DNA from: an uncultured virus (IMG/VR IMGVR_UViG_3300027851_001141)
Lineage: Duplodnaviria > Heunggongvirae > Uroviricota > Caudoviricetes
Strand: one strand, 5' to 3'
Length of the DNA stretch: 64,000 bases
Virus record (IMG/VR): IMGVR_UViG_3300027851_001141
A program made the position numbers and the translations under genes. A model generated the notes under the pieces. The model searched no databases. It saw only the letters and a list, made by a program, of their open reading frames with translations, and was not told where the DNA came from. Shown here one piece after another: positions 44,183-61,212 of this stretch (within the stretch, counting starts at the first letter, position 1; each line of letters starts with the position of its first letter).

Positions 44183-44265
44183 CAGTTATCCGAGTATCCA
44201 GTTATCCAGTTATCCAAGTATCCTCGGTTACCGGGTGCCCGGAAAATCCAAAGGATTTTCCGGGC
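44183..44265. repeat. 8-bp tandem repeats (AGTTATCC-like) plus 13-bp-arm palindrome; copy of 50068-50164
   Basis: 39-bp identity GTTACCGGGTGCCCGGAAAATCCAAAGGATTTTCCGGGC at 44227-44265 and 50124-50162. Confidence 0.9.
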
Positions 44266-49837: not shown

Positions 49838-50067
49838 GCTGCTCCTTTTCCTGCACTATGTTCAGGGTTGAAACTTACTCAAAAGGTCACGCGCGGAAAA
49901 TACTTCCCAGAAAAAGGTTTAGGTCAGGAAATTCACCTACCCCCATTTTAAACCCCATACCCCTTCTCAGATTCTAAACTGGGAAAGGGTAATCCGGTAC
50001 CCCAAGTTCAGAAATGGAATTGGTATTACCAGTGTACGACATACACCTACCAACTTCCTAAGGTTCT

Positions 50068-50334
50068 CAGTTATCCAGTTCTCTAAGTTATCAGTTATCA
50101 AGTTACCATTTTCAAGTTTCCAAGTTACCGGGTGCCCGGAAAATCCAAAGGATTTTCCGGGCACATTTTAGGCCCGGAGGGTTTTTCACTGGATTTTTCT
50201 TTTAGAAAAATCCGAGATTTTCCACCGGGGAAAATCTCCCAGCAAAATATTTCCCGGAGAAATATTTTGGAGAGGGGGCCGTTGGCTTATTTTTCCGGGC
50301 CCGTATTTCCCTCCGGGGAAATACCTACCGGGTA
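50068..50334. repeat. Array of short direct repeats and five related palindromes at the GC boundary
   Basis: Inverted repeats at 50132-50164, 50191-50213, 50214-50238, 50243-50269, 50303-50324. Confidence 0.9.
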
Positions 50335-50354
50335 AATGTCAGGCCCTTAACGAA

Positions 50355-50385
50355 GAAAAGCCCCCCGGTTTCCGGGGGGCTTTTC
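50355..50385 (-). terminator. Intrinsic terminator (bidirectional-type)
   Basis: GAAAAGCCCCCCGG-TTT-CCGGGGGGCTTTTC. Confidence 0.85.
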
Positions 50386-51558: not shown

Positions 51559-51592
51559 GAAAAGGGCCCCCGGTTTCCCAGGGGCCCTTTTC
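51559..51592 (-). terminator. Intrinsic terminator
   Basis: GAAAAGGGCCCC-loop-GGGGCCCTTTTC. Confidence 0.8.
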
Positions 51593-52009: not shown

Positions 52010-52683
52010 GATTGTTTCTCCTGTAGAGGTCGAGGCGTCCCTCGCCTCCCCTTCTACTATGAACAGGGTTGGTTTGGACACTTTTGACACACCTGCCCCT
52101 TAAGTGAGGGGCGGACGTGTCTTTTCACTCGGCGGGCCGGGTGACGTTTTCGGCACTCGGCGGAGGATTGAGACTCCCCAAGCGGGGCGCCTCGTTCACG
52201 ACTCGGGTTCCCCAATAGAGGATCCAAGCTGCCGGAGTACGTCCCCACACGTTCACGCAGAACGTGAACGCTAGGACGGAGACGATCACATACCACTTTT
52301 TCAAGGATTCCATGCGGCAAATGCCTCCTGCCATTTACTATTAGCAGGGTTTGATTCCACCTAATAGCCGATTGAAAGTTGGAAATAGGGGAAAGTCTCA
52401 CGTGAACTGGTAATACCAGTTGCACTTAAAGGTTACCTTAGTCGGAAAATGTTGTAATCATCTATTCACACTTTCGACCCTTTAAGTGAGGCAGCGGGTC
52501 AACAGGGGAAAACGGCCCTTCTCACGTGGAATAGCGGACAGGCGGCAGGTCAGGTTAAAAGGCAATGGCCCGCAAGCGGGCCTGAAAAGCTAGATTCTCG
52601 TAGCCACTGCGAGGAACGGTTAGTGACTATTAGAAATAGGTGTATCACTGCGAGGATTCTCGTAGCCACTGCGAGGATTAAAC

Positions 52684-52720
52684 GGAAATAGCCCCTAGGA
52701 AATACCTAGGGGCTATTTCC
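52684..52720 (-). terminator. Intrinsic terminator
   Basis: GGAAATAGCCCCTAGG-AAATA-CCTAGGGGCTATTTCC. Confidence 0.8.
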
Positions 52721-52730
52721 GGGTAGTGCA

Positions 52731-52916
52731 TCACGCCACCGACTTGATACGGTGGACGATGACGTTTTGGGTTCGGGCTCGAATCAGGAAGATCGCTTTG
52801 TCGATCTCTTCGAGATTCTTCTGAATCTCCTTTCTGCGATCCTCTCCCGCTCGAATCTGTGCCCGGAGCAGCTCACCCTTACGAGTGAGAAGATGACGAA
52901 TCTGATCGTTGCCCAT
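52731..52916 (-). CDS. Small coiled-coil protein
   Basis: GAGGAGG RBS then ATG at 52916, downstream of the promoter motif. Confidence 0.6.
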   Translation of the reverse strand: MGNDQIRHLLTRKGELLRAQIRAGEDRRKEIQKNLEEIDKAIFLIRARTQNVIVHRIKSVA

Positions 52917-53077
52917 GGTCCTAGCCTCCTCTTGGCATCTATTATGAAAAGGGTTCGTAGCCACTGCGAGAAATAGGGGTATCACTGCGAGGATTCTCGT
53001 AGCCACTGCGAGGAATCATTAGAAAGGGTAGGGGGTTAAACAGAAATAGCCCCTGGGTTGGTTACCAGGGGCGTATT

Positions 53078-53359: not shown

Positions 53360-53440
53360 AGCTCCCTCCTTTCGTCTCCCTTTATTATGTCGAGGGTTGG
53401 ACTCGGGCAGCACGTGCGTTAAAAGGGCTTAGCCCCCACA

Positions 53441-53713: not shown

Positions 53714-54361
53714 GAAGCCTCCCTTCGAGATTTAGTATGAAAAGGGTTGCGGGGCTAGCTCACCCCATTCCTTTGCCCCACTTCTCGACCGCGTGTTCCC
53801 ACACTTCCGCGAGAAGGTAAATCCTACCCGCAACGTGCAGTTGGGGCACCGACTTTTCGTCCGGTTGCTCGTTTGCTTCCACCGGGGATTCGATGGTGTC
53901 GATCGCTTCTGCCCGGATGGCAACGAGGCGTGTGTTTTCCCGATTCAGCGTCCCGTCCCGCGAAACTTCGTTGTAGACCAGAAAGTGAATGATCATGGAA
54001 TCAACCTCGGGACAGGTTCGTACACCCGTCGCTTGATGTCTTCTTCGGTGTAGGCTGTCTCCCATTCCGGAAGAAACTCACACCGGGCCAGGATTTCCAT
54101 TCTCCGGAAATCTTCTCGCTCGTGGACCTCCGAAAGAACGTCCAAAAGCGCGTGGCAGGTTTCCGTGTCCTGGGAATCGAACATTTCCAGTTCCACGTGC
54201 TGCTGGCACTGGTAACTGTCTCCGGTCCAGTCGCACAGAAGCAGTGTGTAAAGTACGTGAATCATTATTTCCTCGTCCTTGGTACTTACTATGAAGTGGG
54301 TTCGTCTCGCAGCGAGGATTCTCGTAGCCGCTGCGTACTCCTGCGCGCATTAAACGACAAA

Positions 54362-56397: not shown

Positions 56398-56810
56398 GTC
56401 GGCCTCCTTTCTCTTTCTATTATGGAAAGGGTTGCTTCGCTGCGAGGATTCTCGCAGCGGCTACGAGGAGGGTTAAATGGAAAATAGCCCGACGTAATAT
56501 TCCGTCGGGCTATTTTCAGCAGAAGGTGGTTCGACTGTGCCACAGTTCCGGATTGTGGCCGTACCCGTCGTGTCGGATGGGTTCTCCGTCCCCGTCGAGC
56601 GTGACGGGAGTTTCCTCGTCATCGGAGGGAGTGCTCGTGACGGTGTAGAGACACCATCGGTTTCCGGGACACCATCCCGTCAGGAACAGATTTCCGGCGG
56701 CGATTTCGACGGCGAACTCCTCGGGAAGCTCTCCGAGGAACATCGCCATCACGCCCTCATCTTCGGTCAGGTACCGCACCAAGTATTGTTTCGCCATGAT
56801 CTGTTTCCTT

Positions 56811-59826: not shown

Positions 59827-59897
59827 TGGCCACCTCCTTCCCCCTCTATTATGTCCAGGGTTGTGTCACTGCGAGGTTTCTCGCAGTGACGAAGGCG

Positions 59898-60323
59898 CTA
59901 GTAAGCCCAATCATACGCCTTAAGGGAACCGTCTTTTGAGTATCCCACCTGACAACAATCTACTGAGAAAGCCCAATCGGGCAGGTTTGCCCACTCGCCT
60001 TCATAAGGGCTGATGTATTCCATAATCAGCACAGGTATTCCCAAACTTTTGGAAATTTCATCGTTGTACCCACACCGAGCTAGCCAATGTTTTTGGGTTT
60101 TCCACGTAGAAGATTCGTAATAGTTTGCCTCGAATCCGTCCGATCCCTTGGGCAACTTGATCACGAAATCATCGTTAAGGCGAAAGGCCACACGGTTACG
60201 GCCTTCTCCTATGGGTTCTCCGTAAAGTTCTTTTAGCTTTTGAAAGGCGACTTCTACTAGCTTTTCTAAATCTTCTTCGGTTTCTACCTGAACTCGGTGT
60301 TTGGTATTCTTTCTCAGAATCAT
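59898..60323 (-). CDS. Minimal protein-kinase-like protein
   Basis: IGEGRNRVAF..VIKLP..N..E..LIMEY..QVGY...YDW. Confidence 0.5.
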   Translation of the reverse strand: MILRKNTKHRVQVETEEDLEKLVEVAFQKLKELYGEPIGEGRNRVAFRLNDDFVIKLPKGSDGFEANYYESSTWKTQKHWLARCGYNDEISKSLGIPVLIMEYISPYEGEWANLPDWAFSVDCCQVGYSKDGSLKAYDWAY

Positions 60324-60392
60324 ATTACCGCCATTAACGAAGAAAGAGCGCACGGCCGTGCAGTTAAAAGGCCATGAGGACCAGGTTAAACG

Positions 60393-60429
60393 CCAACAGC
60401 CCCCTAGCTAACTGCTAGGGGGCTGTTGG
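60393..60429 (-). terminator. Intrinsic terminator-like hairpin
   Basis: CCAACAGCCCCCTAGC-TAACT-GCTAGGGGGCTGTTGG. Confidence 0.7.
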
Positions 60430-60633
60430 GCTTGTGCAGCATATCCACAAGGTGGGCCATGCATCTTTCGACTGGCCTTTCGCTTGAAGACTTGGCGATT
60501 CTCCATTAGCATTTCTGCCAACTTCTACGTTTCGTTGCTCCTCAAACTACCGAAATACCCTTGTCTACGAGCATAGGGGAAACGCTCTGTGACGCTCTAC
60601 CTTTCTCGCTAGCACTCGTGGTATTTCTAAGGG

Positions 60634-60706
60634 TGGGACCGGCGGGACTCGAACCCGCGACCGATGGATTAAAAGTCCACTGCTCTACCAACTGAGCTAC
60701 GGTCCC
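60634..60706 (-). tRNA. tRNA-Lys(TTT), CCA not encoded
   Basis: GGGACCG-TA-GCTC..GAGC-A-GTGGA-CT-TTT-AA-TCCAT..GCGGG-TTCGAGT-CCCGC-CGGTCCC-A, followed by CCC. Confidence 0.95.
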
Positions 60707-60787
60707 AGAAGTGGACACCCGAGGTGCGGGTCGGGTGTCCACGGAATGACCTAGAGGGAAAGGAGGGGAAACCTCTAGGTCACGTAT

Positions 60788-61033
60788 TCACTTCTTGGGG
60801 ATCGAGAGGAAGCGTCCCTTGGGGTCGCGGAAGGTCGCCCCCTCGGCACGGGCCTTCCGGAACGCGTCGCCGATCGAGACGGCGACCTTCTGCTCGACCT
60901 GCGTCTCCCGGTAGGCACGCATGTTCTTGCGCTCTTCGTTGCGCTTCACCTTCCGCTCGTGACTTCCGAGGATCTTCGGAAGACGAAGGCGGAGTTCCTC
61001 GGGGGAGAGACGCTTGGCGTGAGGCTGATTCAT
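60788..61033 (-). CDS. Small basic protein
   Basis: GGAGG RBS; promoter motif at 61078; RDPKGRF motif. Confidence 0.6.
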   Translation of the reverse strand: MNQPHAKRLSPEELRLRLPKILGSHERKVKRNEERKNMRAYRETQVEQKVAVSIGDAFRKARAEGATFRDPKGRFLSIPKK

Positions 61034-61212
61034 GATTATTACCTCCGGTGTGGCCGTCGTGGCCGGTGACTCACTTTACTATGGACAGGGTTCGACCTAC
61101 TTGAAGATTCCTTCCGGGCAACGGAAGTGTCGGTCGCTCACTTTGCCACGGAGACGGATCGTGTAGACCCATTCCCCGCACAGAAACGTTCGTCGCTTTC
61201 GTCGCTTGTTCA

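Follow-up and report, generated by a model that had tools for sequence, protein, structure and literature searches.

Small RNAs (sRNAs) with anti-Shine-Dalgarno (anti-SD) loops are already known from a few bacterial groups. In Staphylococcus, RNAIII and the Rsa sRNAs use C-rich (UCCC) apical loops, including those of terminator hairpins, as seeds against Shine-Dalgarno (SD) regions, and 3'ETS-leuZ, a 3' external spacer derived from a tRNA spacer, is said to act as a sponge for sRNAs. Here we describe a pair of hairpins directly upstream of a tRNA-Lys gene in 64,000 nt of DNA from an uncultured member of the Caudoviricetes (IMG/VR record IMGVR_UViG_3300027851_001141); this whole stretch is called the window below. 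One of the hairpins displays an all-pyrimidine loop that contains CCUCC. As in RNAIII and the Rsa RNAs, a C-rich hairpin loop could serve as an SD-directed seed, but the organisms and sequences are unrelated and there is no evidence of homology. As with 3'ETS-leuZ, the product would be a regulatory RNA that arises as a by-product of tRNA precursor processing, although in this case it would be a 5' leader or an mRNA 3' end with an anti-SD loop, and it would come from a phage. A full-text literature search found no description of a phage-encoded anti-SD-loop RNA linked to tRNA processing.

Two further groups of sRNAs invite comparison. The cuckoo RNAs of the Alphaproteobacteria (RSs0680a-d, which are CcsR1-4, SmelA075 and others) consist of two to four adjacent hairpins, every loop of which contains CCUCCUCCC, and occlusion of ribosome-binding sites (RBSs) is the mode of action proposed for them, as it is for staphylococcal sRNAs with C-rich loops (PMC4615179). 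Our locus is similar in having adjacent hairpins of similar size, 4 nt apart, and an anti-SD-like C/U-rich loop. It differs in its loops, one with CCCCUCCUUUC and the other with CCCGCACC where the cuckoo loops all carry CCUCCUCCC, and in being single-copy in the window, on a phage-like contig and next to a tRNA instead of a terminator. When positions 60300-61100 were compared with Rfam at E values up to 10, the tRNA alone reached its gathering score and no match fell on the hairpins (60711-60782). With CCUCC in one of two loops only, a motif other than CCUCCUCCC and no Rfam match, the element was not accepted as a cuckoo RNA.

The alpha-R8 sRNAs (MmgR and SisA-D; Rfam family suhB, RF00519) present a single-stranded UUUCCUCCCU core between a weak hairpin and a Rho-independent terminator (PMC12559287). 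The two systems have in common a single-stranded pyrimidine core that begins with UUUCC and is displayed beside hairpins, but the alpha-R8 core lies outside the loops, whereas the core in the window is different and is not accompanied by a U-tail. The differing core, the missing U-tail and the lack of an Rfam match led us to reject membership of this family as well.

Structure of the hairpin pair and its loop

The preliminary description of this DNA reported two perfect hairpins between the open reading frame (ORF) at 60788-61033 and tRNA-Lys, and both the sequence and a hairpin scan bear this out (Table 1). It proved right in every detail that we checked. In the RNA read from the minus strand, 5' to 3', hairpin 2 comes first and hairpin 1 second, with 4 nt between them. 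The minus-strand RNA from 60708 to 60790 folds as exactly two independent hairpins, with a minimum free energy (MFE) of -42.9 kcal/mol and an ensemble frequency of 0.70. None of 200 shuffled sequences was as stable (z = -7.94), and both hairpins were retained when the RNA was folded with 421 nt of context. The CCUCC-containing loop of hairpin 2, which had been described as displayed, is unpaired in both the MFE and the centroid folds and is thus accessible in silico. The 8-nt loop of hairpin 1 is C-rich and reads CCCGCACC on the minus strand, without CCUCC. Neither hairpin is followed by a U-tract, as had also been noted: the tails read UUCC and UUCU, and the terminator scan listed neither hairpin. 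We rejected an intrinsic (Rho-independent) terminator on this ground, although G+C-rich stems are present (8 and 6 G-C pairs).

Several features set the loop of hairpin 2 apart from the rest of the window. It belongs to the only sense-strand hairpin with a stem of at least 9 bp and CCUCC in its loop, and it sits in the longest sense-strand polypyrimidine run (19 nt, 60753-60771). CCUCC is depleted 2- to 4-fold on the sense strand, where it occurs 67 times versus 130 for GGAGG in the whole window and 11 versus 46 times in the 48-64 kb part. Within the loop, CCUCCUUUC resembles the 3' tail of 16S ribosomal RNA (rRNA).

Two RBSs had been cited as possible targets of the loop, near 53366 and 56403, and both are real: in minus sense, GAAAGGAGGGA lies at 53363-53373 and AAAGGAGG at 56403-56410, each followed by AUG. 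Calculated duplex energies of the loop with real RBSs of the window are -18.4 kcal/mol (53.36 kb), -17.0 kcal/mol (54.44 kb) and -15.3 kcal/mol (59.84 kb). On its own, the 11-mer match to an RBS carries no significance, as two or more such matches occurred in 72 of 100 shuffles.

The same loop in other viruses and in a Binatia gene

An exact scan of IMG/VR with the 14-mer of the loop returned at least 119 occurrences; the hairpin counts given here refer to the matches listed. In 27 of the at least 119 occurrences, the 14-mer is the reverse strand of an RBS, the opposite strand having an ATG 2-12 nt downstream. Among the 119 listed, inverted repeats of at least 8 bp flank the 14-mer in 7, of at least 10 bp in 4 and of at least 14 bp in 3. 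With all other 14-nt windows in the flanks of the same loci as the control, the expected numbers are 0.48 at 10 bp or more and 0.055 at 14 bp or more. When one closing G-C pair was added to the pattern, a further scan matched 9 loci across the entire collection and contributed one new hairpin, L131. The loop recurs on hairpins in at least five other phage contigs, on stems that are unrelated to each other and to that of the window (L010/L063, L030, L041, L058 and L131). L010 and L063 have in common a 40-nt hairpin, 87.5% identical between them apart from an insertion of one base pair, within flanks that are non-homologous.

The surroundings of these hairpins point to a consistent orientation. 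A same-strand ORF ends 25-70 nt upstream of the hairpin in five of the six loci examined (L121-L125 and L131). U-rich tails follow three hairpins (L121, L123 and L131) and a preceding A-tract was seen in none, which argues that the pyrimidine orientation is the transcribed one. Rfam-confirmed tRNAs lie downstream on the same strand in L122 (~680 nt away) and in L125 (~270 and ~610 nt away). In the reverse complement of L122, at ~1440-1530, a hairpin bearing this 14-nt loop stands ~25 nt downstream of a canonical TTGACT-17-TACAAT promoter; beyond the hairpin, ~650 nt that contain no long ORF lead up to tRNA-Thr. Near the end of the 62.7-kb viral contig of L125, downstream of its anti-SD-loop hairpin, two minus-strand tRNAs (L125:818-890 and 1161-1232; Rfam 49 and 55 bits) have abnormal anticodon loops, given by ARAGORN as 'caga' and 'ta'. 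The reversed 14-mer CTTTCCTCCCCTTT, which served as a control, is itself the loop of a 15-bp G+C-rich hairpin in L228, and hairpins that display CCUCC may be a class wider than the exact motif.

In species-representative genomes, the 18-mer GG+loop+CC occurs at 33 loci. At 14 of the 33 it makes up the loop on a 12-bp stem followed by a U-tail; 13 of these loci are in metagenome-assembled genomes (MAGs) of Binatia and one is in a Thermodesulfobacteriota MAG. The Binatia loci (L255-L287, 13 loci; L288-L336; for example L259:923-1040) align as a compact, apparently undescribed sRNA-like gene of ~105 nt, in which a box on the upstream side is strongly conserved and is accompanied by -35-like and TATAGT elements, a small hairpin at the 5' side and two 12-bp hairpins. 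The first of the 12-bp hairpins displays UCCUCCCCGU in its loop; the second displays UUUCCCCUCCUUUCC and bears the U-tail. The gene sits behind two different upstream genes. We probed one Binatia order, 56 genomes in all, with the upstream box, independently of the loop: 20 genomes gave exactly one match each, the control gave 0, and all 20 carry the gene. UUUCCCCUCCUUU is invariant at all 20 loci, with C as the next base in 13 and A in 7. Both loops of the gene are of the anti-SD type, and that of the other hairpin carries UCCUCCCC. The terminator stem occurs in CUCG/CGAG, CUCG/CGGG, CCCG/CGGG, CCUG/CAGG and UCCG/CGGG forms. It varies by G-U and compensatory steps, with double-sided changes in 2 of 31 pairs in the 13-sequence alignment. 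The preliminary description had proposed looking for a conserved loop on a covarying stem in homologues; away from this locus the loop shows such behaviour, on unrelated stems in the phage contigs and on a covarying stem in the Binatia gene.

The viral and bacterial elements share an identical 20-nt segment, AGG-UUUCCCCUCCUUUC-CCU, on a 12-bp stem, and both have two adjacent hairpins of ~12 bp. The window differs in lacking the UCCUCCCC hairpin, the upstream promoter box and the U-tail, and the order of the hairpins is not the same. A covariance model of the Binatia gene (R1) matches positions 60735-60840 of the window with 25.4 bits and an E value of ~1e-4 (1.4e-4), with hairpin 2 alone aligning. 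Rfam holds no family for the Binatia gene; the best match, suhB/mmgR (RF00519), was sub-threshold (23.2 bits, E 0.23). A phylum-wide pattern search that allowed 2 mismatches gave mostly noise, with control hits similar in number. Comparing the DNA of 48-64 kb with the 56 genomes of the Binatia order yielded tRNA matches only, at 73-83%. The idea that a Binatia phage copied a host sRNA was rejected as unsupported, since tRNA matches alone link the phage to those genomes.

Possible roles of the hairpins

We consider the chances about even that the pair is a tRNA-linked, processing-defined stable 3'-end module, in which the hairpins protect an end made by RNase P and hairpin 2 displays a functional anti-SD seed. 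The gene for an 81-aa protein, the two stem-loops, tRNA-Lys and a ~200-nt trailer would be co-transcribed from the minus strand up to the terminator-type hairpin at 60393-60429. RNase P would cleave at the 5' end of the tRNA, 4 nt past hairpin 1, and this cut would turn the two very stable hairpins into the 3' terminus of the upstream RNA. A stable hairpin with a short tail at an RNA end is expected to be resistant to bacterial 3' exonucleases, and a terminus of this kind, with a 4-nt tail, should withstand 3'-to-5' degradation. Hairpin 2 would keep its 14-nt all-pyrimidine loop, UUUCCCCUCCUUUC, single-stranded, and the seed within it could pair with purine-rich SD regions of the GGAGG(GG) or AAAGGAGG type and lower translation initiation. 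The active form would be either the processed mRNA 3' end or a shorter, decay-resistant fragment.

The 81-aa gene, hairpin 2, hairpin 1, tRNA-Lys, the trailer and the terminator are likely to form one transcription unit. We infer this because no promoter-like site was found between the 81-aa gene and tRNA-Lys, the gap between hairpin 1 and the tRNA is only 4 nt, the next terminator is that at 60393-60429, and a contig from a metatranscriptome run (X17) crosses the junction. This 162-nt contig (depth 2.8, 0 differences) spans 60694-60855 and joins the 3' end of the 81-aa gene, both hairpins and the first 13-14 nt of tRNA-Lys. No other contig of this phage was present on a 1701-nt stretch in that run, and we take the 162-nt contig as a weak hint of expression. 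The very high run depth at 60641-60700 reflects tRNAs of other organisms.

That the hairpins are sense-strand RNA structures, placed such that RNase P would leave them as a 3' terminus, seems reasonably secure. With similar security, the loop of hairpin 2 is unlikely to be incidental, because it occupies the longest sense-strand pyrimidine run, CCUCC is avoided on that strand, and an identical exposed loop is found in the Binatia gene and in unrelated phages. Pairing directed at RBSs is our best guess for the role of this loop, and on the strength of these sequence comparisons we regard the element as a credible candidate for a regulatory RNA. Stems of 11-12 bp would be too short for RNase III, and we set aside an RNase III site for that reason.

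A number of findings weigh against an RNase P-defined anti-SD module. The proposal that RNase P frees a separate small RNA is not supported, as the hairpins would stay on the upstream mRNA (~330 nt) unless a second cut occurs upstream, and a hairpin that ends at position -5 may hinder leader binding by RNase P. The claimed complementarity of the loop to AAAGGAGG-type RBSs is true but generic to any CCUCC sequence, and of the 79 sense-strand sites with energies of -13 kcal/mol or better, only about one in ten is an RBS. CCUCC is present on hairpin 2 and not on hairpin 1, in an element that the window contains once. Searches of GenBank phages, IMG/VR and JGI metagenome contigs yielded no diverged homologue of the locus; in a close relative from a DNA run (X3) the whole surrounding block is nearly identical, so the identity of the hairpins there says nothing about selection. 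The X17 contig is of low depth, contigs do not reveal the strand or the ends of a transcript, and DNA carry-over could account for it. With the reversed 14-mer as a control, inverted repeats of at least 10 bp occurred in 1 of 120 matches (a 15-bp hairpin) versus 4 of the 119 listed for the motif, a difference that by our own estimate is not significant given the small numbers; at 8 bp or more the counts are 1 of 120 versus 7 of the 119 listed, and the excess is clear only at that cut-off. As for the Binatia gene, the 13 aligned loci were chosen by the loop itself, so that the 20 box-probed loci are the unbiased set, and the gene as a whole shows good conservation (columns of A2, the 13-sequence alignment, average 88% identity).

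The main rival is that the hairpins are purely structural, guarding the 3' end of the 81-aa mRNA against 3' exonucleases once RNase P has cut, as an end or insulator element, and maybe insulating tRNA folding or slowing read-through, while the loop sequence does nothing. Very stable stems sited between a stop codon and a tRNA, with a tail of 4 nt, would suffice for such a role, and the 48-64 kb part of the window is rich in strong hairpins anyway, with 19 of the 30 perfect hairpins of at least 9 bp that the hairpin scan found. At this locus, moreover, neither covariation nor loop conservation can be demonstrated, and hairpin 1 has no CCUCC. Even so, blocking exonucleases does not require an all-pyrimidine loop as large as 14 nt, the very same loop appears on unrelated stems more often than the flanking-window controls predict, it is invariant in the bacterial sRNA-like gene, and CCUCC is otherwise shunned on the sense strand; we hold the structural role to be a real but lesser possibility. 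It is improbable that the loop acts in cis, by pairing with the RBS of the 81-aa gene, with GAGGAG and GAAAGG tracts in the trailer or with a neighbouring RBS to tune translation or processing. Pairing between the 3' and 5' untranslated regions of icaR is a precedent, the trailer does contain GAAAGG and GAGGAG, the duplex of the loop with the GGAGGU of the 81-aa gene is worth -9.4 kcal/mol, and the L124 hairpin lies 8 nt before the GAAAGGAG-N6-ATG of the next gene (-11.5 kcal/mol), where a pseudoknot would form over the RBS. However, just 5 contiguous pairs form with the RBS of the 81-aa gene itself, no RBS follows the hairpin in the window, and genes upstream of other loop-bearing hairpins have ordinary SDs.

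The loop could also be read by a protein instead of an mRNA, with CCCCUCCUUU mimicking the 16S rRNA 3' end or acting as a pyrimidine tract; S1, Hfq, Era, bS21 or a phage protein such as the basic 81-aa product are candidate binders. The same 13-14 nt recur, including a UUUCC that SD pairing does not need, which suggests constraint beyond CCUCC, and the product of the adjacent gene is very basic and belongs to no known family. Yet the loop matches no known binding motif, the proposal is speculation from composition, and the constancy of the phage flanks is partly built in by the exact-motif search; we find a decoy or protein-binding loop quite improbable. Least probable, and very unlikely in our opinion, is an element of the plus strand or of the DNA itself: an RBS, a GGA-type (CsrA-like) hairpin or inverted repeats bound as double-stranded DNA. 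The plus-strand loop does read GAAAGGAGGGGAAA and both stems are perfect Watson-Crick repeats, but nearly all long ORFs of the window are on the minus strand, and elsewhere the hairpins follow same-strand genes and have U-tails in the pyrimidine orientation only. An ordinary plus-strand RBS was rejected, with no ATG, GTG or TTG within reach of the purine tract on a strand that is antisense to the 81-aa gene.

A broader reading, of which we are doubtful, takes the UUUCCCCUCCUUU loop for an undescribed RNA module scattered over bacteria and many unrelated phages, attached to gene ends or tRNA precursors, from which host processing would deliver a stable anti-SD RNA that re-programs translation initiation during infection. 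Such a module might silence host or early-phage messages with strong SDs, or titrate a factor that recognises the 16S rRNA 3' end. For the viral element alone, the RNase P-defined module that we favour would, if real, give a phage a cheap means of interfering with translation initiation through host RNase P alone, and would assign a function to some of the non-coding sequence around phage tRNA genes. The occurrence of one exact loop in Binatia and in unrelated phages offers a concrete motif for mining such RNAs.

Neighbouring genes, relatives and genome context

The features of the locus are collected in Table 1. The two hairpins constitute the 3' untranslated end of the 81-aa gene. Its basic product has no Pfam or PHROG family and no match above 0.76 in the ESM Atlas, and its sole database relative is one cluster that is 96% identical with an in-frame insertion of 1 aa. 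From the sequence, the RNase P cut would be expected after U 60707. The discriminator base of tRNA-Lys is followed by CCC (60631-60633) and not CCA, which means that maturation must include 3' trimming and the addition of CCA.

Table 1. Positions of the hairpins, genes and promoter-like sequences
Feature	Position in window	Strand	Remarks
Hairpin 1	60711-60742	minus	12 perfect pairs, arms GTGGACACCCGA / TCGGGTGTCCAC; from scan and fold
Hairpin 2	60747-60782	minus	11 perfect pairs; 12 including closing G-U (60746/60783)
Loop of hairpin 2	60758-60771	minus	14 nt, UUUCCCCUCCUUUC; anti-SD-type seed
Gene for basic 81-aa protein	60788-61033	minus	SD GGAGGU 7 nt before ATG
UUCU spacer	60707-60710	minus	From hairpin 1 to first tRNA base (G 60706)
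tRNA-Lys, anticodon UUU	60631-60707 (ARAGORN); 60634-60706 (Rfam, 79 bits)	minus	
Non-coding trailer, ~200 nt	60430-60630	minus	Downstream of tRNA-Lys, same putative transcript
Terminator-type hairpin, 16 bp	60393-60429	minus	CGUUUAAC tail, common to other terminators of the region
Promoter-like units	52605-53013, 54305-54317, 56435-56459, 59865-59890	minus	
CATAATAG sites	52939, 54474, 56417, 57152, 59846	minus	

The trailer has moderate predicted structure (z = -2.1), contains no convincing ORF and has no Rfam match at or near the gathering score of a family; it may represent another non-coding RNA within the tRNA transcript. A small ORF within it (60408-60521) was judged non-coding, its SD-like tract being 17 nt from the TTG. 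The hairpin at 60393-60429 is the likely end of the transcription unit. Together with those at 56480-56517, 51559-51592 and 52683-52721, it forms a set of terminator-type hairpins with G+C-rich stems of 12-17 bp and a (C)GUUUAAC-like tail on the minus strand, without a plain U-run.

No sigma-70-like promoter was found in a scan of 55-64 kb. A minus-strand promoter-like unit does recur, in which a small CCTCGCAGYG hairpin is followed 10-15 nt on by CATAATAG and then by a strong SD and ATG. CATAATAG was observed 6 times versus 1.1 expected, and CCTCGCWGYG 25 times versus 11.6 expected; no CCTCGCAGYG...CATAATAG unit lies between 59.9 and 63.4 kb. The CATAGT at 61078-61083 is not claimed as a promoter of the 81-aa gene, and it is altered in the X3 relative.

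Searches for relatives covered several collections. In blastn comparisons, 58-64 kb matched GenBank phages at tRNAs only, and hairpin 2 gave two 17-nt chance matches only. Scans of IMG/VR viral contigs guided by the 81-aa protein and by a 151-aa protein returned no relative; a scan with a 131-aa protein returned one, 37% identical and without a tRNA. An alignment scan of JGI metagenome contigs with the 81-aa protein found no relative, and exact DNA patterns that spanned the hairpins, or the loop plus the tRNA, found no match. Runs X15 and X18 gave matches on other parts of the stretch that do not cover the hairpins.

Close relatives are present in public runs. The one in DNA run X3 is nearly identical over the block 60027-61065, where its 2 differences both fall at the base of the terminator stem, and it is identical over 60598-60848, which includes the hairpins. 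From 61066 onward it differs by 5-12%, with the differences in third-codon spacing within the next gene. The joint at ~61066 lies just upstream of the RBS of the 81-aa gene, and the pattern is one of phage mosaicism.

Beyond the locus, the window, itself a phage-like contig, encodes a DnaB-type helicase, a superfamily-2 helicase, a sliding-clamp-like protein and a repair exonuclease, and ARAGORN finds three tRNA genes in it. G+C rises from ~0.46 to ~0.55 at roughly 48 kb, and this step and the hairpin density that changes near it could mean that two modules of different origin are joined or that the assembly is chimeric. A hairpin of 13-15 bp with GCCCGGAAAATCC arms is present twice, at 44183-44265 and 50051-50164. 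Behind each copy, in minus-strand direction, stand 4-6 tandem units of 7-8 nt (GTTATCA / CAGTTATC), which are iteron-like, and six further hairpins cluster densely at 50191-50385.

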